Positions 1-17,149 of a stretch of DNA of 17,149 nucleotides are shown here, piece after piece. Source of the DNA: a virus (taxonomy: Duplodnaviria; Heunggongvirae; Uroviricota; Caudoviricetes). The notes under the pieces were generated by a model. The model saw nothing but the letters and a program-made list of their open reading frames with translations. It searched no databases and had not been told where the DNA came from. The position numbers were made by a program, and so were the translations under genes. The stretch spans positions 1 to 17,149 of IMG/VR virus record IMGVR_UViG_2606217105_000018; one strand, 5' to 3'. How positions within the stretch are numbered: the first letter of the stretch is position 1; each line of letters begins with the position of its first letter.

Positions 1-1194
1 ATGGCGCGCATCACACGCCCCCTCACTAACAACGAGATCCTTAAAGCTAAACCCCGAGAAAAAGATTTCACTCTGCATGATGGGGACGGCCTGTTCTTAC
101 TCGTGAAAACATCTGGTAAAAAGCTCTGGCGCTTCCGATACCAACGTCCGGTAAGTAATAGCCGAACTAATCTGAGTCTCGGCTCATACCCTGCCATTAC
201 ACTCGCAGCTGCTCGCCAGTTACGCGACCAACATTTGGCTACACTCGCGCTGGGGATGGATCCACAACAGCAGCAAGAGCAAGCATCAGAGCAACGTCAG
301 ATTGAGCTGGATAGCATTTTCTCAACTGTCGCCGCCAACTGGTTCAAAATGAAGAGCAAAAGCGTCACTGAGGACTATGCGAAAGATATTTGGCGTTCTC
401 TAGATAAAGACGTATTCCCAGCAATAGGCGCGATACCTGTTCAGGAGATTAAGGCCAGAACGATAGTTGAAGCATTGGAACCAATCAAAGCACGCGGCGC
501 ATTAGAGACTGTTCGTCGCTTGGTCCAGCGCATTAACGAAATAATGATTTATGCAGTCAACACCGGCCTGATTGATGCTAACCCTGCATCAGGTGTTGGA
601 ATGGCATTTGAGAAACCCAAAAAGCAGAACATGCCCACGCTACGACCAGAAGAATTACCTAAGCTGATGCGTTCTTTGGTCATGTCAAACCTATCCGTTC
701 CGACTCGTTGCCTTATTGAATGGCAGCTCCTGACCCTTGTGCGCCCTTCTGAGGCTTCCGGCACTCGATGGGAAGAGATCGATCTCGATGCCAAACTCTG
801 GATGATTCCCGCCGAACGAATGAAGGCTAAGCGAGAACATATTGTCCCATTATCAGCACAAGCATTAGAATTACTTGATACAATGGAACCTATCAGTAAA
901 CATAGGGAGTATGTTTTCCCAAGCAGAAATGATCCTAAAAAAAATATGAATAGTCAGACGGCTAATGCGGCACTTAAACGCATAGGCTATGGTGGGAAAC
1001 TGGTCGCTCACGGATTACGTTCTATAGCAAGTACGGCCATGAACGAACATGGTTGGAATGCTGATATCATTGAATCAGCTCTTGCGCATATTGATAAAAA
1101 TGAAGTTCGTAGAGCATACAACAGGTCAACCTACTTGAGTCAACGGAGAGAGTTGATGAGTTGGTGGGCGGAAATAGTTAAACCAAGTAAGTAG
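1..1194 (+). CDS. intA: P4/CP4-57-type tyrosine integrase (IntA-like)
   Basis: 397-aa ORF. N-terminal block MAR.T.PLT..EI.KAKP...D..L.DGDGL.LL.K.SG.K.W.FRY and C-terminal block HGLRSIAST..NE.G...D.IE.ALAH.D.NEVRRAYNRS.YL.QRR..M.WWA match my recollection of conserved P4-family integrase sequence. The ORF begins at base 1, so any upstream att/tRNA lies outside the window. Confidence 0.9.
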   Translation: MARITRPLTNNEILKAKPREKDFTLHDGDGLFLLVKTSGKKLWRFRYQRPVSNSRTNLSLGSYPAITLAAARQLRDQHLATLALGMDPQQQQEQASEQRQIELDSIFSTVAANWFKMKSKSVTEDYAKDIWRSLDKDVFPAIGAIPVQEIKARTIVEALEPIKARGALETVRRLVQRINEIMIYAVNTGLIDANPASGVGMAFEKPKKQNMPTLRPEELPKLMRSLVMSNLSVPTRCLIEWQLLTLVRPSEASGTRWEEIDLDAKLWMIPAERMKAKREHIVPLSAQALELLDTMEPISKHREYVFPSRNDPKKNMNSQTANAALKRIGYGGKLVAHGLRSIASTAMNEHGWNADIIESALAHIDKNEVRRAYNRSTYLSQRRELMSWWAEIVKPSK

Positions 1195-1202
1195 ATAAAA
1201 TT

Positions 1203-2399
1203 ATGAGCGACTTCGATAGAATTGAGGAATTAGCAGGAGAAGGGGTCTACTCAGGCGTAGAACTCGAAGACGAGATGTCTCAGGATGACAACTCCGACAA
1301 GGAGCCATTCGATACAGATTCAATTTCAATTACTCCTAAGACAGTAGCATTGGATACTGTCTTACGCCGTATAAAAAATAATACAATAAAACTAGCTCCA
1401 GATTTTCAGCGTAGTTATGTTTGGGATAAAAAAAGGAAAAGTCAGTTAATTGAATCAATGATGCTGAAGATTCCATTACCGATGTTTTATGTTTCTGAAG
1501 ATAAAAATGGTGTATGGGAAGTTGTTGATGGATTGCAGCGCCTTACTACTATTAAAGATTTCATTTTAGGACCAGACTATGATGGTAAAGGATTTAAATT
1601 ATCTGGATTAGAGTTCTGGAGCACTCCATATGATGGCTATGATTATTTTAATTTAGAGAAGAATGATGAAAATATAAAAATAATCAATAATATTATGGAG
1701 ACTGAACTATCATTCATCATTATAAACCCTGAAACACCAGAAAAAGTTAAGAGAAATATTTTCAAGAGAATCAACACAGGTGGAATGCGGCTATCAAATC
1801 AAGAGATTAGACATGCGTTATATCAAGGGCGCGCCAGCATACTATTGAAATCCATGGTTGAAAATGATGTTTATAATGATGTTGTAGGTAGAACAGTCAA
1901 AGATGACAGAATGGCTGGTAGAGAGCTTATACTAAGGTATTTAGCTTTTACATTATTCGGCTACAATAATTATTATGGAGATATGGATGATTTTTTATCA
2001 AACACAATGAAAGCTTTAAATAATGAGAAAATTAAAGAACTTCCTTTAATTGATATACCTGAGGATGACGTTATCATTAACACATTCGAATTAGGTTTGC
2101 ACCGAACATATGAGATTTTTGGAGAACATTCTTTTCGAAAATCGTTACCTGGAGATACCAGAAAAACACCCGTTAACAAATCTCTTTTCGAACTATGGTT
2201 GTACTTATTAACAAGAGCTAAAAAAGACTCATATGACGAAATCATCTTGAAAAAAGATATTTTACTGAATGAATATAAAGACCTTCTTCAAAATTATGAG
2301 TTTATGAATTCAATAAGCCGACATGGTGCTGGAGTACAAGGCGCTAAATTTCGTAAAGATTGTCTTTTGGACTTACTAAAGAGAGTAATCAATGCTTGA
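1203..2399 (+). CDS. DUF262 (ParB/Srx-like) domain protein, cargo gene A
   Basis: 398-aa ORF. N-terminal half carries the DUF262 signature as I recall it (FQRSYVW ... IPLPMFYV ... VVDGLQRLTTI ... INTGGMRLSNQEIRHAL). No HNH/DUF1524-like His-Me motif is evident in the C-terminal half. Starts 8 bp after the int stop and overlaps the next gene by 8 bp. Region is strongly AT-rich compared with int. Confidence 0.7.
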   Translation: MSDFDRIEELAGEGVYSGVELEDEMSQDDNSDKEPFDTDSISITPKTVALDTVLRRIKNNTIKLAPDFQRSYVWDKKRKSQLIESMMLKIPLPMFYVSEDKNGVWEVVDGLQRLTTIKDFILGPDYDGKGFKLSGLEFWSTPYDGYDYFNLEKNDENIKIINNIMETELSFIIINPETPEKVKRNIFKRINTGGMRLSNQEIRHALYQGRASILLKSMVENDVYNDVVGRTVKDDRMAGRELILRYLAFTLFGYNNYYGDMDDFLSNTMKALNNEKIKELPLIDIPEDDVIINTFELGLHRTYEIFGEHSFRKSLPGDTRKTPVNKSLFELWLYLLTRAKKDSYDEIILKKDILLNEYKDLLQNYEFMNSISRHGAGVQGAKFRKDCLLDLLKRVINA

Positions 2400-3459
2400 T
2401 GAACTTGTTTTAAAATCATTTAAATCCTTTATCTATTCAAAGTTAGAACTTTCTAACATAACTGTACTCACTGGGCTAAATAGCAGTGGTAAAAGTTCAG
2501 TTCTACAAGCAATAAGAATGTGCAAATTAGTAGATAAAGACCACTCACCATATATTCAAGGATTTGGTGGGTTTACCGATCTCAAATCAAAATTGACCTC
2601 TCAACAAAAGCCTGTGCAGATTCTTCTTTCTAGTAAAGAAATGAAAAATTATCTATATCTATCACTAAGAGAAAATATAAACAAACACAGAACAAGAATA
2701 GATAGGTTTTCGGTAGAATATATCTCAGCTGATAGACATGGTCCATGCGTAACATTACCTATTATGCCTCAGGATATTGATGATATTACTGTTGGTGAAA
2801 AAGGTGAGTACTTTGCAGATTATTACTCAAAATTTGAAAGTGTTATAATACCTGAAAAACTTCGCCATGCTAATTCAACAGGAAATACGTTAAAGCATCA
2901 AATTAATCACTGGATGGGAGAAATATCACCTGGTGTTGATTTGAATTTCTCCGTTACGAAAGAGCAAGATATTTCCCATCTAGGGGTTAATGGTTTCAGA
3001 GCAACTAATACAGGGTTTGGAATAAGTTATTCACTCCCGATCGTGTTAAGTGCATTAGTAATGTCTTCAGAGGCTCCGCTAGATAGCTTCAAGCAGTCAA
3101 AAATGAAAGCATGGCATTCTAATAAAAATAAAATTTTAATAATAGAAAATCCTGAGGCGCATTTGCACCCAAAAGGCCAAACAGCTCTCGGATTATTGTT
3201 AGCTATAGCATCTTCTTGTGGTGTCCAGATAATTGTTGAAACACATAGTGACCATTTTATTGATGGCGTTCGATTAGCAGTCAAAAATGTAGGTGCTACA
3301 CTGGCTCAAAAAAGTATCATTTATTATTTTACGCGTGAGAAAGATAAGGATACAAAAATAGAGAAAATCAGAATAAAAGAAGATGGGAAGCTCACAAGCT
3401 GGCCAGAAGGTTTCTTTGACCAAAGCACAATTAATTTATCTAAATTAGCAAAAAAATAA
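2392..3459 (+). CDS. ABC/AAA_21-type ATPase (DUF3696-like C-terminus), cargo gene B
   Basis: 355-aa ORF. Walker A GLNSSGKSS near the N-terminus; Walker B-like ILIIENPEAHLHP followed by ETHSDHF (H-loop-like) near the C-terminus, typical of small SMC/ABC-like AAA_21 ATPases. The start overlaps the gene A stop (ATGCTTGA). Confidence 0.7.
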   Translation: MLDELVLKSFKSFIYSKLELSNITVLTGLNSSGKSSVLQAIRMCKLVDKDHSPYIQGFGGFTDLKSKLTSQQKPVQILLSSKEMKNYLYLSLRENINKHRTRIDRFSVEYISADRHGPCVTLPIMPQDIDDITVGEKGEYFADYYSKFESVIIPEKLRHANSTGNTLKHQINHWMGEISPGVDLNFSVTKEQDISHLGVNGFRATNTGFGISYSLPIVLSALVMSSEAPLDSFKQSKMKAWHSNKNKILIIENPEAHLHPKGQTALGLLLAIASSCGVQIIVETHSDHFIDGVRLAVKNVGATLAQKSIIYYFTREKDKDTKIEKIRIKEDGKLTSWPEGFFDQSTINLSKLAKK

Positions 3460-3461
3460 AA

Positions 3462-4370
3462 ATGAATATAATCAACTACTTAGATGAAAGATGGGTGGTG
3501 GAGTTATGTGCTAATATTCAAGATAACTCCAAAGAACTTGAGTGTTTCTTAGAATTAGCCGAAGCTGTTAAGAAAAACTGCGGGCGTTCAAGCCTCTCTC
3601 TCACCTCAAATATATGGATAATTAAATGCGGTCACGATAATTTATGTGACATCTTATATGGCCCTTTAACTCAAGATCCTGATTTAAGGGATTACCTTTT
3701 AAGACTGGCAAGAATCATTGATGAAGCTGATAGTTATGAAATAGGCAAACCTGAAACTCACGCATATAACTCAGAAGCTCATGCGGCTTTACACCATAAT
3801 AAGGCAGGAGGCCTTTTATATAAAGAAAATGAAGAATTACCTTGGTGGGATGATAGTTCCATGATATTAATTGACTGCCAAGACAAAATACTTTCTTTAT
3901 TCCGAAAACTTCCTATTTACCACAATATGGGTCTAGACGAATTTGATAGTTATCTAGAGAAATGCTTTCCTAATATATATTTTCTCGATGATGCGAGAGA
4001 TTTTTCTAAAACAGATATTAGCGAAAAAAACGACACAAAACTTTCGGTTATTATAAAGCATTTATCATATCTTAATGATCATGCACAATATGACTACCTT
4101 ATAGATCCAGAACAGTTTGAGCAAAAAGCACTTTCTCATGGTGTAGAACTATCTAGAGAAAGCAGCAGTACAAAACGAAACCAAGATGCAGTTAAAGAAA
4201 GAACAAAAAAAATAAATGAGGAGGCTCTTTTCTTTGAATTACACACCAAACTCAGTAGAGAAAAAGGTAGAATCCATTTTCATATAGGCTCAAGCCTGAG
4301 CGAAAAAATAAATAAATTAAGTGAAGGTCGTCTAATAGTTGGCATTGTGTGCAAACACTTATCAACTTAA
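3462..4370 (+). CDS. hypothetical protein, cargo gene C (no recognisable motif)
   Basis: 302-aa ORF starting 2 bp after the gene B stop; same strand and same low-GC composition as genes A and B. I could not recognise any catalytic motif by eye. Confidence 0.55.
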   Translation: MNIINYLDERWVVELCANIQDNSKELECFLELAEAVKKNCGRSSLSLTSNIWIIKCGHDNLCDILYGPLTQDPDLRDYLLRLARIIDEADSYEIGKPETHAYNSEAHAALHHNKAGGLLYKENEELPWWDDSSMILIDCQDKILSLFRKLPIYHNMGLDEFDSYLEKCFPNIYFLDDARDFSKTDISEKNDTKLSVIIKHLSYLNDHAQYDYLIDPEQFEQKALSHGVELSRESSSTKRNQDAVKERTKKINEEALFFELHTKLSREKGRIHFHIGSSLSEKINKLSEGRLIVGIVCKHLST

Positions 4371-4810
4371 TTAGTACCTCAATATTAAGCTGCCACTTTA
4401 ATCACTCATGATAAGTGGCACCTATTCATTTCAATAAAATTCCCCCTAATAAAAATCAGCACTTTTTTTTCAAATAAATAAATCAGTAACAATATTCACA
4501 TGTATAGCGGCAGAATAATTTTTTCTTAAATATCACACAATCTACATCGTGGGCCGATTTTAATGTAAGAGTACGTGTAAGGATCTAATTTGCAAAGATA
4601 GATTATTGCACGTACACATATAATTCGTTCTAAAATCTATGAGTTGCGATCATGACGCCAATAAGTATGCCTTCACGATGCGAGCCCCCCTCGTCCTGTA
4701 AGTATCCCACATCCCCCTACCTACCAATAACTTGTTGTCACTATTTATAGCTCTCTTGTTTGAATCTCAACAACAACAGTAAAAAATATGCACATTACTG
4801 CTGGCGCGCA

Positions 4811-4829
4811 ATGCTCTCCCCGCCACGCC
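4811..4829 (-). other. cos: cos-like site (P2/P4-type 19-nt cohesive end, about 16/19 match)
   Basis: Reverse complement of ATGCTCTCCCCGCCACGCC is GGCGTGGCGGGGAGAGCAT, compared with the P2/P4 cohesive end GGCGAGGCGGGGAAAGCAC as I remember it. It lies between the int-proximal cargo and psu, where cos sits in a P4 prophage. Confidence 0.4.
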
Positions 4830-4930
4830 TGCCCGCTTAAGAGGTCGCTTTTAATGCAGGTGCATGAACCAACTCAAGCCGCGCCGGTACTGGTGTTGCG
4901 TGGGATAAAAAATACGGGGATTTGCATGCA

Positions 4931-4963
4931 AAACCATGCACCTTATGGATGCATGGTTTTTTT
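4931..4963. terminator. stem-loop with T-tract, probable bidirectional terminator downstream of psu
   Basis: AAACCATGCA (4931-4940) pairs with TGCATGGTTT (4950-4959) around a 9-nt loop, followed by a run of 7 T on the plus strand. On the minus strand the same stem is followed by TTTTG about 40 nt after the psu stop. Confidence 0.45.
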
Positions 4964-5002
4964 CGGGAAAAATAGCGGAATTTTCGGGGATTTTTTTGCG
5001 TG

Positions 5003-5569
5003 CTACCGTGCGGCCAGTTCTGCACGTCGGCGGGGGTAAATCAGGTTCTGTGCCGGGGTGAATTTCTCGCGATTATCATCCCGCGAAGCCGCATCAGGCC
5101 TGAATCCGATGGCCGTTAAAATATCGTTGTCCTGCACGGAATAATTAATTTTTTTACCTGCGGCCAGCCACACCGACAGGGCTTCACGCAGATAATCAAC
5201 CGAGTGCTGCATGGCGCTCTGTTTTACTGCGGGAAGCTGTTCGTTATACCCCATCAGCTCAGGTGCCAGCGTGGCGGCCAGCTCCGCGCCGTGCTGCTGC
5301 ATAAATTCATGGAGCCGGTTGCGGATACTGATGTGCTGCACTTCCTCATGTGAGCGGATATAGCGACCGGCGGCCTGATTAATCTCCCATTTTTTCACGT
5401 CGATATCGTCGCGCAAATCCTGCATTCTGCTCGGGATTTGTTCGTCACCGGCAAGGAGCTGTTCACGGTATTCCCGTTCAAGGTCTGCCAGTTCGGCTTT
5501 ACGTTTCAGCCAGGTATTTTTGTTCGTCTGACAGGCCTCAAAGGCCTGCTGTATGGTCACAGTGGTCAC
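5003..5569 (-). CDS. psu: Psu, polarity suppression protein (P4-type, capsid decoration / Rho antagonist)
   Basis: 188-aa ORF with a GTG start preceded by AGGAG. Blocks QQAF..CQ.NK..W, VNQAAGRYIRSHE.VQHISIR.RL..FMQQHG..LAA.LAPELMGY, INYS.QD.DILT.IGFRPD.AS.DD.REKFTPAQN match my recollection of P4 Psu. Sits directly after delta on the same strand. Confidence 0.85.
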   Translation of the reverse strand: MTTVTIQQAFEACQTNKNTWLKRKAELADLEREYREQLLAGDEQIPSRMQDLRDDIDVKKWEINQAAGRYIRSHEEVQHISIRNRLHEFMQQHGAELAATLAPELMGYNEQLPAVKQSAMQHSVDYLREALSVWLAAGKKINYSVQDNDILTAIGFRPDAASRDDNREKFTPAQNLIYPRRRAELAAR

Positions 5570-5584
5570 GAGTCTCTCTCCTGA

Positions 5585-5824
5585 TTAATGCCGGAACGGC
5601 GAACTGTAGCAGCCCTGCACCTTACGCGGCGGTGGTGGCGCCACCGGCGCGGGGTCGGTTTTCTCCGGGGCGGCACGTATCACACCGTCAACCGACTCGA
5701 TGGTGCGGAAAGTGGCCGAACATTCGATATTGGTACACTGGTGATAACGCTGTTTGACGTTTTCCGACAGATAACGGCTGGTACGGACGTGCGCGGTCTT
5801 TTTGCAGAACGGACAGTGAAACAT
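5585..5824 (-). CDS. delta: Delta/Ogr-family zinc-finger late-gene activator
   Basis: 79-aa ORF MFHCPFC..TAHVRTSRY......RYHQC.N..CSATF with the C-x2-C ... C-x4-C Ogr/Delta zinc-finger pattern. Lies between sid and psu as in P4. Confidence 0.85.
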   Translation of the reverse strand: MFHCPFCKKTAHVRTSRYLSENVKQRYHQCTNIECSATFRTIESVDGVIRAAPEKTDPAPVAPPPPRKVQGCYSSPFRH

Positions 5825-5827
5825 GAT

Positions 5828-6573
5828 TCAGCCCTCTGCCTGTTCGTGGTCTTTTGCGGCCAGTTCAGCGGCAAGCTTCATCCGTCTGGCCGGGCTTCTT
5901 AACAGCGCCATATCAACCCCGGTTATGACCGGGCGATTCATGCCCGTTACGGACAGAACCGGCTCCTGCTCCATATCGAAATGATACAGGGCTGACTGCA
6001 GATTCAGGGCATCGCCCAGCTCGCGGGTCACGGTCGCACGCGGCGAGGTTTCTCCGCTCATTTCCAGCGACCGTATACGCAACAGAAAGGCACGTAACAG
6101 TGCGGGGCTGATACCGGCCAGCACTTTCTTCCATTCGCTGTTGGCGTAAGTGGTGAATGCTTTTTCGTGGGCGCTGATATAAGCCGTACCGGAGGAGCAT
6201 GCGCCAAGCATGGCGAGGCCTTTGTCTTTCTCCAGCTCGGTAATCAGACCGGTGAACTCATCAGCCAGTTCTCGGCTGGCGATACGTTTACTGTGTTCAG
6301 CTTTCAGTTCAGGAGTGAGGTTGCCGCGCAGAGTTCGAAAGCGGCTGCGCCAGTCCTGTTCGGCCTGTGCACTTTCACTGAGCGCGGTCTGTCGTTCCTG
6401 CTCACAACGCTGAATGGAAGCCTCAATGTCGCTGAGTTTACCCATGCTGGCCGTGTGTGCGTCTTTTGCTTCGTTAAGTGCGGCCAGCGCACCGGCAATA
6501 AGTTGTTCCGCGCCTTCATCCTGTTTACTGATAACGGTCTGCATGGCTTTGATAATGAGTTCGGGTTTCATGT
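5828..6573 (-). CDS. sid: Sid-like external scaffold (capsid size determination) protein
   Basis: Ala/Glu-rich, probably coiled-coil, protein immediately upstream of delta-psu on the same strand. I prefer the ATG at 6573 (MKPELI..., GGAG about 8 nt upstream) over the longer ORF starting at 6637, because a TGT-N12-ACA dyad at 6644-6661 would otherwise fall inside the coding region. Confidence 0.65.
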
Positions 6574-6643
6574 TCAGGCTCTCCGTGTGTTCAACCTGAA
6601 ATGATTCTGACGCCTCCTGCACAACAACACGATTCATTGCCGT

Positions 6644-6661
6644 TGTCAGAGTGCTGGCACA
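6644..6661 (-). promoter_or_regulatory. TGT-N12-ACA dyad, candidate Delta/Ogr activator site of a Psid-like late promoter
   Basis: TGTcagagtgctggcACA centred about 80 bp upstream of the proposed sid start. P2/P4 late promoters carry a TGT-N12-ACA element near -55. Such a 6-nt-defined dyad also occurs by chance, so position is the main argument. Confidence 0.3.
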
Positions 6662-6740
6662 AACAGACCTTAAAATCAGGCTGGCCAGAGAAAGGTCGCA
6701 GGAAAACCTTACTCACCGTTTGTTTTTTTACTTATAACTA

Positions 6741-6842
6741 TTCACCACTGTTCACCTTAAATAAAAAGATAAGTAATACAGTAAGTTAAATGGTTAACAG
6801 TTGAAGGTCTGACTGTTCACCGTCTGTTCACCACTGTTCACC
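6741..6842. repeat. cluster of TGTTCACC iterons (P4 ori-like alpha-binding sites)
   Basis: TGTTCACC at 6749-6756, 6814-6821, 6825-6832 and 6835-6842, plus a partial copy at 6741-6748, in the sid/vis divergent intergenic region. This octamer is the P4 type I iteron bound by alpha protein. Confidence 0.6.
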
Positions 6843-6924
6843 CTCCTGTTTTGCTCTGGTTATAGCATTTAGACTTTATTTTGATTAAAAATGAAAAATA
6901 TATAACTAAAAGCAATAGAAATTG

Positions 6925-6984
6925 CTGCATTGTAATGCAGTGATTTGCATATGTTTGCCAGCGTTTGCCATTGTTTGCCAGAGC
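6925..6984. promoter_or_regulatory. palindrome TGCATTGTAATGCA followed by three direct GTTTGCCA repeats upstream of the vis-like gene
   Basis: The sequence TGCATTGTAATGCAgtgatttgcatatGTTTGCCAgcGTTTGCCAttGTTTGCCAgag can be read directly. It lies about 130-180 bp upstream of the 7109 start, so it is a candidate operator for the early/late switch. Confidence 0.3.
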
Positions 6985-7108
6985 GAAAAGTCAATGTTTG
7001 TTTCCCCGAAAATCTCACATGACCTGAGGAAAAATATAGACATAATAAGGAGCTACCCGAAGCCGGACGGACACGACCGGCACTGTATGGACTTTGTGAG
7101 GTAGCCCG

Positions 7109-7375
7109 ATGCACACTGCTTTTTCTTCCCCGTCTTCTGCCCCTGCCGCGCCGCTGATGCCGGTTTCTGATACCGTTCACGAGCGCTTTATCCGTCTGCC
7201 CGAAGTGATGCATCTGTGCGGCCTGTCCCGCTCGACCATTTACGACCTCATCAGCCGGGAAGCCTTCCCGAAACAAATCTCCCTCGGCGGAAAAAATGTG
7301 GCGTGGGCGCAGTCTGAAATCACTGCATGGATGGCGGATCGCATTGCCGAACGTAACCGGGGCTATGACGCATGA
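7109..7375 (+). CDS. alpA: AlpA/Vis-family excisionase-like transcriptional regulator
   Basis: 88-aa ORF. Core [55 protein letters not shown] is a typical AlpA-family helix-turn-helix. GAGG lies about 9 nt before the ATG at 7109; an alternative start at 7157 is possible. Confidence 0.8.
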
Positions 7376-7728
7376 TGATGACCATTCAGCAAACAGCCCC
7401 TTTTTCTGGCTTGCTTCTTTTCGCCGTTTCCAGGTATAGTTTTCCCGCTGTCGCAAAATCGGCAGCCGGGCGTAGGAACCCGAGTTACTCAATGGCGACA
7501 CCGGACGCGCCATGCGTCTTTTTTTACGTCGTTGCTCAGGCACACCCATTTTTCGGGCTGTGGTGTTTACACCTTAGCCCCTGTCAGATAATGGTGATCC
7601 GGGCGGGGCAGCCTTCGGGCTGGCCGGTATTCATTGAGGCCGGTATTCCTACCCCCGTTCGGGTCACCACCCATGAGCGTAGGAACTCCGGTGGTGGCAA
7701 TAACCGCTACTCAATGGAGGTTGCCACT
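7376..7728 (+). ncRNA. candidate P4-type immunity RNA / leader region with repeated complementary boxes
   Basis: GCGTAGGAAC occurs at 7471-7480 and 7676-7685; TACTCAATGG at 7486-7495 and 7709-7718; the complementary GTTCCTAC-like box (ggtattcctaccc) at about 7640-7652. This resembles the seqA/seqB/seqC arrangement of the P4 cI RNA system. Exact RNA ends are not determinable by eye. Confidence 0.25.
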
Positions 7729-7923
7729 ATGGCTACGACCCTCACCCCGTCACACCCGCAATTTGTCTTTGTGTTTGCTGCTGTTCGTCGCGCAGACCGT
7801 ACCCCTCGTATTTGTATGCTCCGCACCGTTGCCGGTGATGAGCACGCCGCACGCCTTTCTCTCGTTCGCGATTACGTTCTCTCGTTTGCTGGCCGTCTGC
7901 CGGTTGCGGAGGTTCGCGCATGA
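7729..7923 (+). CDS. small hypothetical protein of the satellite early operon
   Basis: ATG at 7729 with GGAGG 8 nt upstream; 64 codons ([16 protein letters not shown]...). Its stop overlaps the next start (ATGA). This is the only protein-like part of the long 7372..7923 ORF. Confidence 0.3.
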
Positions 7924-8147
7924 GACACACCACCATTACCGCCCGTGACCTCGAATGTCTGGAGCATATGCGCAATGTCGGCCAGCTCGTCAATGAGCTG
8001 ATGCAGGTGCAGGACTGCGCCACCGTTCGTCGTGACCCGGCGCAGCAGTTACAGCTCACCTCCGTGATTTACCTCATGACCGCCCAGCTCGACGGCGTGG
8101 TCGAACGCTGCAATCAGCAGTGGCTGACCGGGGAGGGTAACGCATGA
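7920..8147 (+). CDS. hypothetical protein, satellite early operon
   Basis: 75-aa ORF with ATGA overlaps at both ends (translational coupling), same strand, directly upstream of the alpha operon genes. Occupies the slot where P4 epsilon would lie, but I cannot confirm identity. Confidence 0.5.
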
Positions 8148-8464
8148 AACAGCCATTACCGCCCGTATTACGCGCCGCGCTGTATCGTCGCGCCGTGGCC
8201 TGTGCATGGCTGACCCTGTGCGAACGCCAGCACCGCTACCCGCACCTCACCCTCGACGCGCTGGAAAGCGCCATTGCCGCCGAGCTGGAGGGCTTTTACC
8301 TGCGCCAGCACGGCGAGGAAAAAGGTCGCCAGATTGCCTGTGCACTGCTGGAAGATTTAATGGAAGCCGGACCACTCAAAGCCGCGCCGTCGCTGTCCTT
8401 TTTCGGGCTGGCCGTGATGGATGAGCTTTGCGCCCGTCATATCACCGCACCGGCACTGCACTGA
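8144..8464 (+). CDS. hypothetical protein, satellite early operon
   Basis: 106-aa ORF, start overlapping the previous stop (ATGA), ending 15 bp before the alpha start. Confidence 0.5.
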
Positions 8465-8478
8465 GGGAGAAAATAACT

Positions 8479-10812
8479 ATGAAAATGAACGTAACGGAAA
8501 CCGTAAAACAGGCGTGCGGTCACTGGCCGCGCATTCTCCCTGCGCTGGGTGTGAAGGTGATTAAAAACCGCCATCAGGCCTGTCCGGTGTGTGGCGGCTC
8601 TGACCGTTTCCGCTTTGACGATAAAGAAGGGCGCGGGACGTGGTTCTGCAATCAGTGTGGCGCAGGTGACGGGCTTAAGCTGGTAGAGAAAGTGTTTGGC
8701 GTGACCCCGTCAGAAGCTGCCGGGAAGGTGAACGCCGTGACCGGCAATCTGTCGCCGGTTGCCCCGGAAGTGATTGCGGCCGCAGAGGCTGAAACCGATG
8801 CCGATCGCAAAGCGGCGGCCGAGCTGGCCGCGAAACTGATGGAGAAAACCCGACCGGCCACCGGCAACGCCTACCTCACCCGCAAGGGCTTCCCCGCTCT
8901 GGAATGTCTGACGCTCACCGTCATGCATAAAACCGGCGGCGTGACGTTCCGCGCCGGGGATGTGGTTGTCCCGCTGTATGACGATACCGTCGCACTGGTT
9001 AACCTTCAGCTTATCAATGCTGACGGTCTCAAACGCACCCTGAAAGGCGGTCAGGTCAAAGGGGCATGTCATATCATCGAAGGGAAAAAACAGGCCGGAA
9101 AACGCCTGTGGATTGCAGAGGGTTATGCGACCGCACTCACCGTGCATCACCTGACCGGGGAAACCGTCATGGTGGCGCTGTCCTCCGTGAACCTCCTTTC
9201 TCTGGCGAGCCTTGCCCGTCAGAAATATCCGGCCTGTCAGATTGTGCTCGCTGCCGACCGTGACCTTAACGGCGACGGCCAGAGTAAAGCCGCTGCGGCC
9301 GCAGATGCCTGTGAGGGCATTGTTGCCCTGCCGCCGGTGTTCGGTGACTGGAATGATGCGTTTATACAGTACGGCGAGGAGGCCACGCGCAAGACTATTT
9401 ATGACGCCATCCGGCCACCGGCGCAAAGCCCATTCGACACCATGAGCGAGGCGGAATTTACCGCCATGAGCGCCAGCGACAAGGCTTTGCGGGTGCATGA
9501 GCATTACGGTGAAGCGCTGGCGGTGGATGCGAACGGCCAGCTCCTGTCCCGCTATGAAAACGGCATCTGGAAAAATATCCCTGCCGCCACTTTTTCACGG
9601 AATGTGGCTGATTTATTCCAGCGCTTACGCGCCCCGTTCTCGTCCGGGAAAATTGCCTCGGTGGTGGAGACCCTGAAACTGATTATTCCGCAGCAGGATA
9701 CACCGGCGCGCCGTCTGATTGGCTTTCGCAACGGGGTACTCGATACTCAAAGCGGCGTATTCAGCCCGCACCACAAATCGCACTGGCTGCGCACATTGTG
9801 CGATGTGGATTTCACCCCGCCGGTGGAGGGGGAAACGCTGGAGACGCACGCGCCGAACTTCTGGCGCTGGCTCGACCGTGCAGCCGGTAAAAATCCACAA
9901 AAACGCGACGTGATTCTGGCTGCGCTGTTTATGGTGCTGGCGAACCGTTACGACTGGCAGCTCTTTCTCGAAGTGACCGGTCCCGGCGGGAGTGGCAAAA
10001 GTATTCTGGCTGAAATCGCGACCCTGCTCGCCGGAGAGGATAACGCCACGTCAGCCGATATCGACACACTGGAAGACCCGCGCAAGCGTGCCTCCCTGAT
10101 TGGCTTCTCGCTTATCCGTCTGCCTGACCAGGAAAAATGGAGCGGTGACGGCGCAGGACTCAAGGCCATCACCGGCGGCGATGCAGTTTCAGTTGACCCG
10201 AAATACCAGAATCCGTACTCAACGCATATTCCGGCGGTGATTCTGGCCGTGAACAATAACCCCATGCGCTTCACCGACCGCAGCGGCGGTGTGTCACGCC
10301 GCCGGGTGATTATTCACTTCCCGGAACAGATTGCCCCGGAGGAACGCGACCCGCAGCTCAGGGATAAAATTGCGCGCGAGCTGGCCGTCATTGTGCGCCA
10401 GCTTATGCAGAAATTCAGCGACCCGATGACCGCACGCGCACTGCTTCAGTCGCAGCAGAACTCCGACGAGGCGCTCAGCATTAAGCGCGATGCTGACCCG
10501 ACATTTGATTTTTGCGGCTATCTGGAAATGCTCCCGCAGACCAACGGGATGTTTATGGGGAATGCCAGCATCATCCCGCGGAATTATCGTAAATATCTCT
10601 ATCACGCGTATCTGGCCTATATGGAGGCCAACGGCTACAGAAACGTGCTCAGCCTGAAAATGTTCGGGCTGGGGCTGCCCATGATGCTGAAAGAGTACGG
10701 CCTGAATTATGAGAAGCGGCACACCAAGCAGGGGATACAGACCAATCTGTCGCTGAAAGAGGAAAGCTACGGCGACTGGCTGCCGAAGTGCGACGAACCC
10801 GCAGCAACATAA
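8479..10812 (+). CDS. alpha: Alpha-type primase-helicase (zinc-binding primase, TOPRIM, D5-like helicase)
   Basis: N-terminal CPVCGG...FCNQCG zinc-binding motif, a primase region, and Walker A GPGGSGKS in the C-terminal helicase part. ATG at 8479 has a strong GAGGGAGA Shine-Dalgarno and gives 777 aa, the size I recall for P4 alpha. The ORF-track start at 8428 lacks a ribosome-binding site and overlaps the preceding gene. Confidence 0.9.
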   Translation: MKMNVTETVKQACGHWPRILPALGVKVIKNRHQACPVCGGSDRFRFDDKEGRGTWFCNQCGAGDGLKLVEKVFGVTPSEAAGKVNAVTGNLSPVAPEVIAAAEAETDADRKAAAELAAKLMEKTRPATGNAYLTRKGFPALECLTLTVMHKTGGVTFRAGDVVVPLYDDTVALVNLQLINADGLKRTLKGGQVKGACHIIEGKKQAGKRLWIAEGYATALTVHHLTGETVMVALSSVNLLSLASLARQKYPACQIVLAADRDLNGDGQSKAAAAADACEGIVALPPVFGDWNDAFIQYGEEATRKTIYDAIRPPAQSPFDTMSEAEFTAMSASDKALRVHEHYGEALAVDANGQLLSRYENGIWKNIPAATFSRNVADLFQRLRAPFSSGKIASVVETLKLIIPQQDTPARRLIGFRNGVLDTQSGVFSPHHKSHWLRTLCDVDFTPPVEGETLETHAPNFWRWLDRAAGKNPQKRDVILAALFMVLANRYDWQLFLEVTGPGGSGKSILAEIATLLAGEDNATSADIDTLEDPRKRASLIGFSLIRLPDQEKWSGDGAGLKAITGGDAVSVDPKYQNPYSTHIPAVILAVNNNPMRFTDRSGGVSRRRVIIHFPEQIAPEERDPQLRDKIARELAVIVRQLMQKFSDPMTARALLQSQQNSDEALSIKRDADPTFDFCGYLEMLPQTNGMFMGNASIIPRNYRKYLYHAYLAYMEANGYRNVLSLKMFGLGLPMMLKEYGLNYEKRHTKQGIQTNLSLKEESYGDWLPKCDEPAAT

Positions 10813-10860
10813 CCTCACTCAGACCGGCAACAGCCGGTCTTTTCCTTTCTGGCCATTGCC

Positions 10861-11152
10861 ACAGGGTGAACAATCCACTGTTCACCCTTCACCGTATATT
10901 CACCCTGTATCACCATGAAATTATTGATAAAAAACCAGAGGTGAACAGTGTGAACAGTAAAACCTGAAAAAACTTTTTATCACCCCTCACATCGCCTGAG
11001 CGGACGGTTCCAGAACGAGCACAAATCACAAAGGTGAAGAGTCGACTGTTCACTCTTCACCAACCGTTCACCACTTATCATTCTGATATTAAAAAGAAAA
11101 ATAACGAGGTGAACAGTGTGAACAGTTAAATGCAAAAAAACTTTTTTTCAAT
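10861..11152. repeat. crr-like region: two direct repeats of about 110 bp, each carrying TGTTCACC/GGTGAACA iterons
   Basis: Repeat 1 is about 10873-10985 and repeat 2 about 11041-11152. Each has ctgttcac.cttcacc..., then gaggtgaacagtgtgaacagt, then an A6-8CTTTTT element. This matches the published description of the P4 cis replication region downstream of alpha. Confidence 0.6.
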
Positions 11153-11458
11153 GCTCATTGTTTAAGAAAAAAAGACCACATGAAAAAGGTGGCACATTTC
11201 TAAAGAGGGATCGTATTACTATGACATTTCATAATTGGTACACGTTTAGGTACACAACTGAAAGTTGAATACGGAAAAATCCTTTACATTTAATATATTA
11301 AGAAATTTATTCAGACTCCGCCAGCCCACCAATCATGATTGGACGGTGTAAGGACAACACCAACAAAAACAGGAAGTTAGCAGTCTCAGCAGGACACCGA
11401 CCAGACGGTGAGGAGACAAAAAAGGATACGCAAAGGAGCCGCGGCTCTCGAGTGACAC

Positions 11459-11490
11459 AAAAGCCCGCTTATGCGGGCTTTTTGTTTTTC
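11459..11490 (+). terminator. rho-independent terminator
   Basis: AAAGCCCGC-TTAT-GCGGGCTTT perfect hairpin followed by TTGTTTTTC, about 70 bp upstream of the endonuclease gene. Confidence 0.5.
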
Positions 11491-11559
11491 CCTTAAGTTC
11501 CTAGCCGCTTATCTATAACTATGGAAAAATGTTAACCCTGACTGTATGTTAACAAAGGG

Positions 11560-12774
11560 ATGTATATGTCGGTTTTTCATAACTGGCTGCTTGATATCGC
11601 AAGCGGGAATTACTTTATCTACATCAAACGCCTTTCTGCAAACGACACAGGCGCAACAGGTGGCCATCAGGTCGGACTTTATATCCCCTCAAATATCGTT
11701 GAAAAGCTTTTTCCATCTATCAATCATACTCGCGAACTGAACCCTTCAGTCTTCCTTACTGCGCATGTATCATCCCATGATTGCCCTGATACCCAAGCAC
11801 GCGCAATTTATTACAACAACCGTTATTTTGGTAAGACCCGAAACGAAAAAAGAATTACGCGCTGGGGGAGAGGAAGTCCATTACAGAACCCTGAAAATAC
11901 AGGAGCCCTCACAATTCTTGCTTTCAGGTTAAACGAACAGAACACTGACTGTTCCGAGGTAGATATATGGGTCTGCGTCAATCCCGATGAAGAGGATATC
12001 ATCGAGTCTGCTATTGGCGAAATCATACCTGGAACCCTAATTTCCGGCCCTGCCGGACAAATTTTGGGCGGATTGTCTCTTCAGCAAACTCCAGTAAATC
12101 ATAAATATGTTATTCCTGAAGACTGGAAGAAGCGTTTTCCTTCTGGAAACGAAATTATTCAATATGCTGCTGGCCATTATGCTAAAAACTCCAAGGATCC
12201 AGATGAGCAACTGATTGACCGTCGGCGTGTCGAGTATGATATTTTTCTACTCGTCGAGGAATTACATGTTCTTGATATTATTAAGAAAGGATTCGATTCT
12301 GTAGATGAGTTTATTGCATTAGCCAACTCTGTCAGTAATCGACGTAAATCAAGGGCAGGCAAATCACTTGAACTTCACCTAGAGAAGCTTTTTATCGAGC
12401 ACGGACTACGGCATTTCTCCACTCAGGCAGTTACTGAAGGTAATAAAAAACCAGATTTCCTGTTTCCTTCAGCAGAGGCATATCATAACGTTGAATTTCC
12501 TGTAGAAAACTTACGTATGCTGGCAGTAAAGACCACCTGCAAAGATCGCTGGCGTCAGATACTGAATGAAGCAGATAAAATCCATCAGGTACATTTATTT
12601 ACACTGCAAGAAGGTGTTTCTTCAGCACAATACCGAGAAATGAAAGATGCGGGTGTCAGACTCGTTGTACCATCAACTTTACATAAAAAATACCCAGAAG
12701 CAGTTAGAGAAGAATTAATAACGCTCGGAGCATTCATTACTGAGCTGATAGAGCTTTACGCTGAACTATCATAG
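11560..12774 (+). CDS. ecoRIIR: Type IIE restriction endonuclease, EcoRII family (CCWGG)
   Basis: ORF of 404 aa from 11560, or 402 aa from the ATG at 11566 which has better AAGGGA spacing. The sequence matches my recollection of R.EcoRII; size and convergent pairing with a Dcm/M.EcoRII-like methyltransferase support the call. Confidence 0.8.
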   Translation: MYMSVFHNWLLDIASGNYFIYIKRLSANDTGATGGHQVGLYIPSNIVEKLFPSINHTRELNPSVFLTAHVSSHDCPDTQARAIYYNNRYFGKTRNEKRITRWGRGSPLQNPENTGALTILAFRLNEQNTDCSEVDIWVCVNPDEEDIIESAIGEIIPGTLISGPAGQILGGLSLQQTPVNHKYVIPEDWKKRFPSGNEIIQYAAGHYAKNSKDPDEQLIDRRRVEYDIFLLVEELHVLDIIKKGFDSVDEFIALANSVSNRRKSRAGKSLELHLEKLFIEHGLRHFSTQAVTEGNKKPDFLFPSAEAYHNVEFPVENLRMLAVKTTCKDRWRQILNEADKIHQVHLFTLQEGVSSAQYREMKDAGVRLVVPSTLHKKYPEAVREELITLGAFITELIELYAELS

Positions 12775-12779
12775 GCTGA

Positions 12780-12802
12780 CTCCCGGCTTAAAAGGCCGGG
12801 AG
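12780..12802. terminator. inverted repeat between the convergent R and M genes (weak bidirectional terminator candidate)
   Basis: CTCCCGGC-ttaaaag-GCCGGGAG lies between the R stop (12774) and the M stop (12809). No clear T-tract on either side. Confidence 0.3.
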
Positions 12803-12808
12803 ATGTTC

Positions 12809-14242
12809 TCAAGGCTGCCCAGTCTTACCAGCATCAGCAGAAACAGCTTTGAGGATATAGGGTTCCAGAAGTCTGGCAACAGCTTCAAATACTGGCACCA
12901 CAACTGAGTTACCGAACTGCCGATATGACTGAGTATCTGAAACCGGAATACGGAATGGTTTCCCTCCAGGTTTTTCAAATCCCATAAGGCGTGCGCACTC
13001 TCGGGGAGTCAGCCTGCGTGGTCGACGAGCCTGATTACTCTCATTCATAAAGTCAGCCTCTCCCGTTGCCATATCCCAACCACGATCAATAAGAATTTCT
13101 GATCCGTCTTTGTGATATCTGGCAGAAAGTGTGCGTGCAATGCTTTCCTTATTCTCAGGATTGACCAACCCAAAGCCAAAACCATTCCCCTTGGCTGCAT
13201 GCTTTTTGGCGTAGTTATAAAGGTACTCCCATAGTTTTGGCGTAAGTATATATTTACTGTCGACTACAGGCTCCAGCAATTCACCAAATGATGGGCGGTG
13301 TTCCGGATAAAAACGACTGATATCACGCAAGGTAAACCCCTTGTGAATATTCAGATCTCGTCTAAATCCGACCAGAACAATACGTTCACGATGCTGAGGC
13401 AAAAAATGCTTCCCATCGATAATCTTTGGATCGTTTTTTCCCATTTCTGCAGCATCGGCAACTTCGTAGCCCAGCTCGTCAAGGGTCTCCATAATGACTT
13501 TGAAAGTTTTACCCTTATCATGGCTCTTCAGATTTTTGACATTTTCCAGCACAAAAATTGCCGGTTTTTTTGCTCGTATAATACGTGCCACGTCAAAAAA
13601 AAGTGTTCCTTGTGCTTCACATTCAAAACCATGCGCACGACCAAGTGAGTTTTTCTTACTAACACCAGCAAGGCTAAATGGCTGGCACGGGAACCCCGCA
13701 AGAAGCACATCATGATCCGGCACATGCTCATCAATATATGCATAAGCATCCGTTTCCAATACATCGGTTTTATCACTCAGCGTGACTTCCCGAATATCGA
13801 GATTGAATTTATGCACCTGTTCATCGTTAAACCAGTTGGCCTTGTATGTACGCACAGCATCTTTATTCCATTCACTGGTAAAAACACACTGGCCTCCAAT
13901 GGCCTCAAAACCTTTCCGTATCCCTCCAATTCCAGCAAATAAGTCAATGAAGCGGAAAGCATATTCCGGATGGTTTGCAGGTGGTTCTGGTAGCATCTTA
14001 CGCAGAAGAGACTCTTCTACTGAAGTCAACGATTTTGGTAAACACTTGCCATTAATCCAGCGGTTAATGGTTTCACGGCTCCACTCATTTTTTCCGACTT
14101 TTCTCAGTAATTCAGCCACATACTTCTGATCATAGATTTCCAGCACTTTCTCGATAAGCTTTTTATCATTTTCCTGTCGCAGCTTTTCTTCCGCCTCGGC
14201 TTCCTTCAGCAGATGCTGTGCCAACACTTCAAATTCAGACAT
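12809..14242 (-). CDS. ecoRIIM: C5-cytosine DNA methyltransferase, Dcm/M.EcoRII family (CCWGG)
   Basis: Motif [18 protein letters not shown], the catalytic [11 protein letters not shown] (PC motif) and ENVKNL (motif VI). Starting at the internal ATG 14242 (MSEFEVL..., GGAGG 7 nt upstream) gives 477 aa, the size I recall for M.EcoRII. The ORF-track start at 14284 has no ribosome-binding site. Confidence 0.9.
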
Positions 14243-14603
14243 AATTCCTCCAAGGGGTCTAATGGGTGAAACTTTATCACTCATTCAACCCAGAAGGAAA
14301 TGTTTTATCTGGATATTTAAACAGTGACTACAACGTAATCTAGCACTGGTGATGCTTTGTTAGGCATAGAGAATCATTCTATATACGACTAATGACAGAA
14401 AAACAGCAGACAAGTAGTTTGTTCATAAATTAACGCATACTATGTGTCTACGGTTTTCGAGACCGGTCCAATCATCAAACGAAACATAAAATTAGCTCAC
14501 ATTATGAGGAAAAGTATCTTTTTTGTACTATGTAAATTCAAAGGCTTAGCCTCATTTCTCCGATGGTTTTCTCAACACTACTGGTTGTGAGCCCTTGCAA
14601 TGA

Positions 14604-15422
<819 letters not shown>

Positions 15423-15441
15423 GTCTTTAAGTGATAAGCAT

Positions 15442-15490
15442 AAACCGCAGCACGTCATGCATACGTCGTGTCTGCGGTTTTTCTTTTTTG
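15442..15490 (+). terminator. rho-independent terminator after the GIY-YIG gene
   Basis: AAACCGCAG ... CTGCGGTTT stem enclosing a smaller palindromic loop, followed by TTTTTCTTTTTTG. Confidence 0.5.
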
Positions 15491-15491
15491 C

Positions 15492-16076
15492 TTACACGGT
15501 GTCTGGTTCTTCTGGCCACTCAATATCCGGTGCAGTTGATGTATCAACACGGTTCAGCAACACCCGATACTTTTTCCAGGCTTCCAGCAATGAGGTTTCT
15601 TCCTCCGTTGCGATTTCCAGATCTACAGCATCCTGAAGTGGCGCAATATGCTCACTGGCTACCTGCATCAGGCTGTTTTTTGTTTCTTCTGCCTCCCGGA
15701 TCCGGAACAGTTTTTCTGCTTCCGTATCCTTCACCCAGGCTGTGCCGTTCCACTTCTGATATTCCCCTCCCGGCGACAACCAGGTAACATTTTCCGGTAA
15801 CGGACCGAGTTCAGAAATAAATAACGCGTCGCCGGAAGCCACGTCATAAACCGTTTTACCCCGATGGTCTTCAACGAGATGCCACGATGCCTCATCACTG
15901 TTGAAAACAGCCACGAAGCCTGCCGGAATATCTGGTGGTGCAATATCGGTACTGTTTGCTGGCAGACCTGTATGAGGCGGAATATATGCGTCACCTTCAC
16001 CAATAAATTCATTAGTTCCGGCCAGCAGATTATAAATTTTTATGGTCCGTGCTTGTTCACTCATTCTGAATGCCAT
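15492..16076 (-). CDS. tfa: tail fibre assembly protein (Tfa family chaperone)
   Basis: 194-aa [50 protein letters not shown]..., a typical lambdoid Tfa N-terminus. Its ATG overlaps the upstream tail-fibre stop (TAATG). Confidence 0.85.
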
Positions 16077-17149
16077 TATGCAAGCCTCACAATATAGTTA
16101 AATGCGATGTTTTTGACGGTGTTTTCCGCGTTACCAGCAGCGTTAACGGTGATGGTGTGTCCATGTGAACCAATCGCAACGGAGTGCGTATGAGCACCAA
16201 TACCGACAGTATGCGCGTGTGCACCTGCAGATGCTGCTGTGCCGGACAGTGAATGGCTATGATTACCATCTGTACTGGTATTCGCTAACCACCCCGTAGA
16301 CATACCTACTGAGCCTTGTACACCCCAGGTATTTTGACCTGAGCTTGTATAACCATATTGATAAGTATCTTTAAAAACACTGGGGTTAAATCGACGGCCA
16401 TCTCTATGGCTGTGATTACCAGCTGCATTCGTGCTGCCACTTAAACTATGGGTATGCGCACCAGTGTTATTCGTGGATTTAGTGCCGTAATCAAACGACG
16501 ATGTGGTTTTCGTCCCCAAATCCGTACTGGATGCGCTGGCGCTGTGGGTGTGCGATTTAATACCGTCCTGTTCCTGAGACAAGCAGACCTCGCTGCTGCG
16601 CTGGCCTGTTCAGTGGCTTCGCCAGCCTTCGTTGTGGCTGTTGAAGCAGACGATGCGGCACTTTCTGCCGATTTTCCGGCGGCGGTGGCACTGGCTGAGG
16701 CCTGCCCGGCACTTGTTGACGCGGCACTGGCAGACGACGCAGCCGCTGTTTTTGAGCCTGCCGCAGCCGAGGCGCTCTGTCCCGCTGCCGTTTCAGAAGA
16801 CCTGGCGTTTGTCTCAGACGTCTTTGCCGCCTTCGCGGAATTGCCTGCCGCCGTTGCCGAGGAAGCGGCACTACTGGCGCTTGATGATGCGTTCGTTTCT
16901 GATGATTTCGCTGCCTCTTTTGAGGCCGCCGCATCCCGGGCTGAGGTGGCTGCTTCTGACGCCTTCGTGGTCGCGGCGGATGCAGAAGTGGCTGCTGATT
17001 GTTGTGACGCTGCCGCATTCGTTTCTGACGTTTTCGCCGCAGCGGCACTGGTAGCTGCCGCGCTTTTTGAGGACTCTGCAGCGGCAGCACTTTTTGATGC
17101 TTCAGTGGCCTTTGTTGATGCCGTTCCTGCGCTGGAAGACGCTGACTGA
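16076..17149 (-). pseudogene. stf: side tail fibre protein, partial at window edge and apparently frameshifted
   Basis: The C-terminal 168 codons (16076-16582) carry H-x-H repeats ([28 protein letters not shown]) and end in [15 protein letters not shown]. The region 16583-17149 is open in a different minus-strand frame that encodes a Ser/Ala/Thr-rich repeat with recurring KTSETNA units, typical of a tail-fibre N-terminal shaft. The two frames overlap only between about 16460 and 16611. Confidence 0.5.

Follow-up and report, generated by a model that had tools for sequence, protein, structure and literature searches.

The 17,149-nt window analysed here (positions 1 to 17,149 of the IMG/VR virus record IMGVR_UViG_2606217105_000018) carries a convergent pair of genes for an EcoRII-type endonuclease (R) and a C5-cytosine methyltransferase (M). 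We conclude, with high confidence, that the core of this locus (11498–14325) is an intact EcoRII-family Type IIE restriction-modification (R-M) cassette, and that a lambdoid prophage inserted at ssrA carries it at its attachment-site (att) end, where the att flank precedes it and a segment encoding CMoRE (PD-T4-3) follows.

Identity and intactness of the endonuclease and methyltransferase

The R product can be aligned with the EcoRII structure 1NA6 over residues 1–403 (E 3e-243, 86.1% identity). R is a two-domain protein, in which an N-terminal, B3-like effector domain (Pfam EcoRII-N, residues 18–165, E 3.9e-61) is followed by a C-terminal PD-(D/E)XK catalytic domain (EcoRII-C, residues 229–393, E 2.4e-71); NCBIfam returned no model for R or for CMoRE. 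The active-site, CC:GG-reader, flipped-base pocket and effector-contact residues of EcoRII have been published (Golovenko et al. 2009, PMC2770665), and all 26 of these functional residues (4 catalytic and 22 recognition or DNA-contact residues) are kept in R. Specifically, the catalytic residues E271, D299, K324 and E337, the C-domain readers Lys328, Asp329 and Arg330, the flipping-pocket residues Arg222, Glu225, Tyr226, Phe229, Arg265 and Ala266, and the N-domain residues Asn28, His36, Gln37, Tyr85, Arg94, Glu96 and Arg98, together with the phosphate contacts, are identical to those of EcoRII. From the 86% identity and the conserved residues, we infer that R cuts before CCWGG and that at least two such sites are required.

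The M product comprises the Pfam domains DNA_meth_N and DNA_methylase, contains the motifs FAGIGG, PCQPFS, ENV and GNSV, and matches NCBIfam PRK10458 with 927 bits. It is 90.6% identical to M of plasmid pACN001-A, whose R is in turn 98.8% identical to 1NA6, and 68.5% identical to Dcm (3ME5). M is predicted to methylate the inner cytosine of CCWGG. The locus does not have the arrangement of an orphan Dcm-Vsr pair: no vsr-like open reading frame (ORF) is found downstream of M in the window, an intact R converges on M, and M is nearer to M.EcoRII than to Dcm.

Comparison with the plasmid alleles gives a ratio of nonsynonymous to synonymous divergence (dN/dS) of 0.05 across both domains of R and of 0.03–0.04 for M, at a near-saturated synonymous divergence (dS) of ~1.3–1.6. 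Because these ratios are low, strong purifying selection on both R and M is indicated. An earlier note, made from the letters of the window, had proposed an EcoRII-type pair with the gene sizes of EcoRII, a hairpin between the stop codons, no vsr, and an intact endonuclease, for which it named the PD-(D/E)XK residues beforehand as a refuting test. Alignment of both proteins to the EcoRII references bears these proposals out, with the catalytic and the recognition residues all in place, with gene sizes (404 and 477 aa) that are those of the canonical plasmid EcoRII genes, and with the hairpin and the lack of vsr as stated.

Layout of the cassette

The stop codons of R and M are 34 nt apart. For R, RefSeq uses the second ATG (equivalent to 11566), which gives 402 rather than 404 aa, and both ATGs are kept in plasmid EcoRII cassettes. 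For M, the longest ORF (12809–14284, minus strand) would encode 491 aa, but the start at 14242 is preceded by a GGAGG kept in three homologous cassettes and agrees with the 477 aa of RefSeq, while one of these cassettes has the upstream ATG (14284) in another frame.

The sequence between the stop codons can be folded into a hairpin with a 10-bp stem and a 3-nt loop, with a shuffle z-score of only −1.76. The terminator scan did not flag this hairpin, which has no T-run on its 3′ side. The one indication of its function, putatively as a bidirectional terminator, is that the stem core CTCCCGGC/GCCGGGAG is invariant across three cassettes that are only ~80% identical.

Homology to plasmid EcoRII cassettes, as determined by pairwise BLAST, spans only 11498–14325 (right edge 14324–14325). 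At its left end, upstream of R, a block CTGGCTGCTT..TATAACTATGAAAAAATGGTA is kept in three cassettes, and at its right end the M leader contains an invariant inverted repeat, CCAGA-N13-TCTGG (14290–14312), a candidate operator for autorepression of M. The coordinates of these and other features are collected in Table 1.

Table 1. Features of the window, with the evidence on which each is placed
Feature	Position	Strand	Evidence
Satellite integrase	1–1194		
Satellite low-GC hotspot (int to psu)	1203–4370	+	31–36% GC
Satellite alpha primase	8428–10812		
Degenerate ssrA (transfer-messenger RNA, tmRNA) 3′ end; right att junction of satellite, left edge of prophage	11310–11332	+	alignment
Prophage att flank downstream of ssrA core	11333–11484	+	90–91% identity to phage LLS attP flank
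Region upstream of R, probably promoter	11498–11559	+	plasmid homology onset; conserved block; promoter role putative
EcoRII-type Type IIE endonuclease gene (R)	11560–12774, 404 aa; 402 aa if from 11566	+	1NA6, Pfam, residues, dN/dS
Inter-stop hairpin, candidate bidirectional terminator	12780–12802	.	fold; stem-core conservation; function putative
M.EcoRII-type C5-cytosine methyltransferase gene (M), N-terminal DNA_meth_N domain	12809–14242, 477 aa	-	Pfam, identity, motifs, dN/dS
M leader/promoter region	14243–14324	-	near-invariant 82-nt block in three cassettes; GGAGG ribosome-binding site
CMoRE/PD-T4-3 segment, right part of 4.17-kb unit	14435–15480; gene 14649–15422, 257 aa	+	PADLOC, PDB 9U75, homology edges

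The ssrA junction separates the cassette from a P4-like satellite

A P4-like satellite makes up the left 11.3 kb of the window; it has, in addition to its integrase and alpha primase, psu/delta/sid-like ORFs (the sid-like ORF at 5828–6637) and two 125-nt copies of crr-like repeats (10865–10989 and 11033–11157). The map of P4 runs int, attP, crr, alpha, and this gene order implies that, once P4 is integrated, no other satellite feature lies between crr and att. Consistent with this order, positions 11310–11332, beyond the repeats, align with the 3′ end of ssrA in strain SA186 (TTCAGACTCCGCCAGCCCACCA versus TTCAACTCCCGCCAGCTCCACCA; window 11310–11332 with SA186 locus L001 12001–12023) as well as with the attP regions of LLS and of CT01, a circular phage. 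ARAGORN and Rfam detected no complete tmRNA in the window, which fits a fragment of ~23 nt. The adjoining att flank corresponds to a stretch of phage LLS annotated as tmRNA pseudogene/attP, occurs also in phage Ayreon, and ends in a terminator-like hairpin (11459–11482) flagged by the terminator scan.

Homology to satellite-free genomes starts at 11310–11318. Of the 263 records with coverage of 80% or more of the locus, the best 30 begin to match only at 11310 and lack the satellite side. A comparable satellite/R junction, in which the primase gene adjoins R, was found in only three complete genomes, all from enterotoxigenic E. coli (ETEC) of pigs. The R-M pair thus lies outside the satellite, beyond crr and the att junction, and not between int and psu/cos, where satellite cargo is expected. 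The satellite's real defence cargo is the anti-phage system NsnABC, encoded by three genes of the low-GC hotspot (PADLOC NsnA, E 8.6e-123; NsnB, 1.6e-99; NsnC, 2.5e-124) and named Menshen (PMC12065111).

On this alignment evidence, the satellite and the lambdoid prophage are read as tandem integrants at one ssrA site, and the R-M pair is assigned to the prophage rather than to the satellite, because SA186 has ssrA, R, M and CMoRE in a satellite-free 45-kb prophage. This tandem integration explains why the pair seems to come after the crr repeats. The earlier note had placed the pair directly after crr-like repeats and had seen in it a second defence cargo slot. The repeats are real, but ~400 nt, including the satellite att junction, separate them from R; and the idea of a defence slot was right in spirit, since the next gene encodes PD-T4-3/CMoRE, but the slot is that of a separate prophage, and its 4.17-kb unit is found without the satellite and in other phage types.

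A 4.17-kb unit shared by different prophages

The unit at 11318–15480 (4.17 kb), which consists of the att flank, R, M and CMoRE/PD-T4-3, is 98.2–99.9% conserved across settings in pairwise BLAST, with its right edge at 15480 in all contexts. In SA186, the match extends over window positions 11318–16582 at 99.9% identity, and the order of the lambdoid prophage is smpB, ssrA, R, M, CMoRE (a 257-aa GIY-YIG protein), tfa, tail fibre, lom, J, tail/head genes, lysis, Q, repressor and integrase, with the chromosomal genes (glaH onward) resuming ~2 kb beyond the integrase. The unit is also present in e14/Mu-tail-type prophages at ssrA (IAI39 and GPEC1035), at prophage ends at two further loci (Sanji and Z1323PEC0011; no ssrA is annotated in the 6-kb flank shown), and in the circular 43.7-kb phage genome CT01, deposited as a plasmid, in the order int, dinI, R, M, CMoRE ... 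tfa. In SA186, CT01, IAI39, GPEC1035, Sanji and Z1323PEC0011 alike, the unit occupies an att-proximal accessory (moron) position between the tail-fibre genes and att; the R-M pair sits where the accessory 'b' region of lambda lies. In the window, the gene that follows is a tail-fibre assembly gene (15492–16076).

The 257-aa CMoRE gene product matches PADLOC PD-T4-3 over residues 1–256 of 256 (E 7.6e-140) and PDB 9U75 over its full length (E 5e-171), and contains the Pfam domain LEM-3_GIY-YIG; by these matches it is classed as a PD-T4-3/CMoRE protein. CMoRE is a type IV nuclease that degrades DNA containing 5-hydroxymethylcytosine (5hmC) or its glucosylated form (5ghmC) and spares DNA containing cytosine or 5-methylcytosine (5mC) (PMC12923530, 2026). 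Because 5mC DNA is not degraded, CMoRE is compatible with self-methylation of the M.EcoRII type. In strain Sanji (locus L008 9087–9859), the CMoRE gene beside the R-M pair is annotated as frameshifted, an instance of decay within the 4.17-kb unit.

Genomes that have CMoRE but lack the R-M pair show homology only from 14435–14448 onward. Together with the boundaries of the plasmid homology (11498–14325), this makes the unit a composite of att flank, EcoRII cassette and GIY-YIG segment. CMoRE was linked to the R-M pair in every copy inspected. Across 5426 complete E. coli genomes, CMoRE is present in 867, with the methylase adjacent in 239 of them; in ~630 of the 867 it occurs without the R-M pair, still at prophage ends beside pinE or tail-fibre genes, so the pairing is optional.

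Distribution of the cassette and dcm background of its carriers

R is present in 262 of the 5426 genomes (~5%), with 263 places on chromosomes and 4 on plasmids. The matching records number 264; identity is at least 99% in 263 of them and in the 60–80% band in the remaining one. R is covered to at least 80% in 261 of the 262 carriers, the match in H112 being truncated. Exact copies of the R, M and CMoRE proteins were each found on no fewer than 1000 public contigs, where R is labelled type II restriction endonuclease and M DNA cytosine methyltransferase. A second dcm-like locus is present in each of the twelve carrier genomes listed, and a dcm-like gene was matched in 5367 of the 5426 genomes. 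A literature search for EcoRII, prophage and Dcm returned plasmid EcoRII or Dcm and no description of a prophage-borne allele, nor any biochemical characterisation of it. Family, structure and mechanism are textbook; there is nothing unusual about this member of a well-characterised family, and it is annotated already.

Comparison with known systems

The closest relative is plasmid EcoRII (1NA6, 3HQF and 3HQG; represented here by pACN001-A), with which the prophage cassette shares its gene sizes, the convergent layout, the core of the inter-stop hairpin, the M leader, a two-domain R with all published catalytic and CCWGG-contacting residues, and an M with a fused N-terminal domain. It differs in protein sequence (86–87% identity for R, 90.6% for M), in DNA sequence (~80% identity, dS ~1.6) and in its location at the att end of temperate prophages (263 chromosomal versus 4 plasmid places). 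Given the ~80% DNA identity and the dS of ~1.6, the prophage pair is placed as an old sister lineage of plasmid EcoRII rather than as a recent transfer from a plasmid. Chromosomal Dcm-Vsr has a methyltransferase of the same family (PRK10458) and the same predicted CCWGG specificity; unlike Dcm, to which it is 68.5% identical, M has no overlapping vsr and is paired with an endonuclease. Furthermore, Dcm is an orphan in nearly all genomes, whereas M is accessory (~5%).

The nucleotide-flipping enzymes PspGI, Ecl18kI and SsoII (CCWGG or CCNGG) have a catalytic domain distantly related to that of R (2FQZ and 3BM3, E ~1e-4). CC:GG recognition and base flipping are common to EcoRII and these enzymes (PMC2770665). 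The matches found cover only the C-terminal half of R (residues 254–388 and 254–340), and R has in addition a full EcoRII-N domain. PspGI, Ecl18kI and SsoII are not known to possess an N-terminal effector domain or to be Type IIE enzymes under autoinhibition.

Defence islands can pair a system blocked by DNA modification with a type IV modification-dependent nuclease, as do BREX and BrxU/GmrSD on plasmid pEFER. The prophage unit resembles such islands in that one system acts against unmodified DNA and its neighbour against DNA with hypermodified cytosine, here EcoRII-type and CMoRE (PMC12923530). It differs in its components and in its setting as a 4.17-kb unit at a prophage att end; moreover, its complementarity is a prediction and its pairing is optional.

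Proposed mechanism and alternative functions

The mechanism proposed here draws on sequence conservation and on published work with EcoRII. M would place a 5-methyl group on the inner C of CCWGG and would repress its own promoter through its N-terminal domain, as autorepression of M.EcoRII has been published (PMC12707154). In EcoRII, the effector domains keep the enzyme inhibited, and cutting requires extra sites (PMC2770665). By analogy, an R dimer would be held inactive by its N-terminal effector domains and would cut before CCWGG only once extra unmethylated sites are bound by these domains, so DNA with few or widely spaced CCWGG sites would escape. Because nearly all E. coli carry a Dcm of the same specificity, the barrier would act mainly against DNA from dcm-negative sources, and any addiction (host-killing) potential of the cassette would be neutralised by the host Dcm. 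The earlier note had expected CCWGG methylation to affect any incoming CCWGG-sensitive element. This expectation was overstated, since a second dcm-like locus is found in each of the twelve listed carriers, plasmids are restricted by EcoRII only if their donors are dcm-negative (PMC11602122), and Dcm cancels EcoRII host killing (PMC2993543).

The modified cytosines of T-even phages evade R-M systems (PMC12923530). CMoRE would attack hmC/ghmC DNA that escapes EcoRII-type cleavage and would leave 5mC DNA uncut, and because CMoRE targets hmC/ghmC and spares 5mC, the R-M pair and CMoRE would be both compatible and complementary. We tentatively suggest, at somewhat less than even chances, that the 4.17-kb unit is inherited as a single defence module of two layers, and that recombination exchanges it at an att-proximal slot among temperate phages that are unrelated to one another (lambdoid siphovirus-type and e14/Mu-tail myovirus-type). 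Such a module would cover unmodified-cytosine DNA from dcm-negative sources as well as T-even DNA with hmC/ghmC, and its 5mC self-mark would be invisible to CMoRE.

Several points weigh against the identification of the locus as an intact cassette at the att end of a lambdoid prophage. The cleavage specificity, the two-site requirement and the methylation are all predictions from sequence. The identity of at least 99% among the 262 carriers means that intactness there says little about selection, for which only the comparison with the plasmid alleles is informative. No exact empty site (11310–11484 joined to 14436–14700) was found in the complete E. coli genomes, no record covering both parts, and the insertion of the cassette as a discrete event is therefore undemonstrated. 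A search of the phage collection with 11310–15430 as query found the pair in no record; only the att flank was matched, in LLS and Ayreon. The sole evidence for carriage by an excised phage comes from a plasmid record that describes a circular, phage-like molecule. Finally, the window ends within the tail-fibre region, and the remainder of the prophage is seen in relatives only.

Three alternatives to a defence cassette of the prophage were weighed. The pair could be mainly a selfish addiction module, stabilising the prophage by killing cells that lose it, rather than an anti-phage defence. Post-segregational host killing by EcoRII is documented, and the cassette resides on a mobile element and has spread at 98–100% identity over different prophage backbones; Dcm, however, suppresses this killing (PMC2993543 for both), and addiction should fail in carrier hosts because a second dcm-like locus is present in every carrier genome inspected and a dcm-like gene in nearly all genomes searched. 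Purifying selection on both R domains fits a working nuclease, yet does not separate the two roles. We consider a predominantly addictive role improbable.

Less probable still, R could be silent or inactive in carrier hosts, with M a redundant second Dcm. M is predicted to be functionally redundant with Dcm, plasmids whose donors were dcm-positive escaped restriction by EcoRII (PMC11602122), the R match of H112 is truncated, and the frameshifted CMoRE of Sanji shows that decay does occur within the unit. Set against these observations, the R ORF is full-length and lacks none of the catalytic or recognition residues, both of its domains show a dN/dS of 0.05 with dS near saturation, coverage of R reaches at least 80% in all carriers but one, and the upstream and terminator elements are conserved.

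That the pair instead fills a second cargo slot in the P4-like satellite, and moves with it, is suggested by its position ~400 nt past the crr-like repeats, by the known carriage of defence cargo by P4-like satellites (here Menshen NsnABC at 1203–4370) and by the primase-R adjacency in the three pig ETEC genomes, but is rejected as extremely improbable on the grounds of the att junction, with crr last before att and an ssrA 3′ remnant beyond it, the rarity of such junctions, the lack of satellite-side sequence in the best 30 records, and the satellite-free copies, in which the pair directly follows ssrA (SA186 and IAI39) or the unit lies in a circular phage genome.

Other observations in the window

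The satellite (1–11309) contains 5 CCWGG sites versus 24.9 expected, which makes CCWGG the second most depleted of 510 pentamers. Four of the five sites are more than 1.9 kb from the nearest neighbouring site, and the other gap is 781 nt. In phage P4 (locus L013, 1–11624), 9 sites are present versus 25.3 expected. The carrier prophage shows a weaker depletion (106 versus 157 expected) and the chromosomal flank none (41 versus 38 expected); in the satellite and in P4 alike, the pentamer with the strongest depletion is GGCCC. The CCWGG depletion in the satellite and P4 may be a trace of long-term selection by EcoRII-type enzymes.

Rfam places isrK (7447–7524, plus strand) and C4 antisense RNA (7587–7674, plus strand) between the sid-like ORF and the alpha primase gene of the satellite, a stretch that would be its P4-type RNA-based immunity region. 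A full-length Rfam match to IS009 (229 bits; 15535–15733, minus strand) lies within the tail-fibre assembly gene, so that the RNA model overlaps coding sequence. At the right end of the window, 16581–17142 matches SA186 (L001 18663–19224) at only 90% identity and with a 1.39-kb offset; because of this match and offset beyond 16582, the tail-fibre gene appears to be mosaic or shorter than in SA186.

Significance

The importance of this locus is small beyond its correct annotation, and modest interest attaches only to the prophage ownership of the pair, its constant association with CMoRE and the shortage of CCWGG in the satellite. The ssrA junction illustrates that, in tandem arrays at this site, defence genes can be credited to a mobile element that does not own them. 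A sister lineage of plasmid EcoRII, old and prophage-borne, is found in about 5% of complete E. coli genomes, in constant linkage to CMoRE. This may be of interest for defence mapping, for phage therapy and for DNA transfer from dcm-negative cloning strains. With Dcm present in the carrier hosts, the cassette would provide a natural case in which the barrier and the addiction effects of a restriction system are both largely pre-empted by the orphan methylase of the host.

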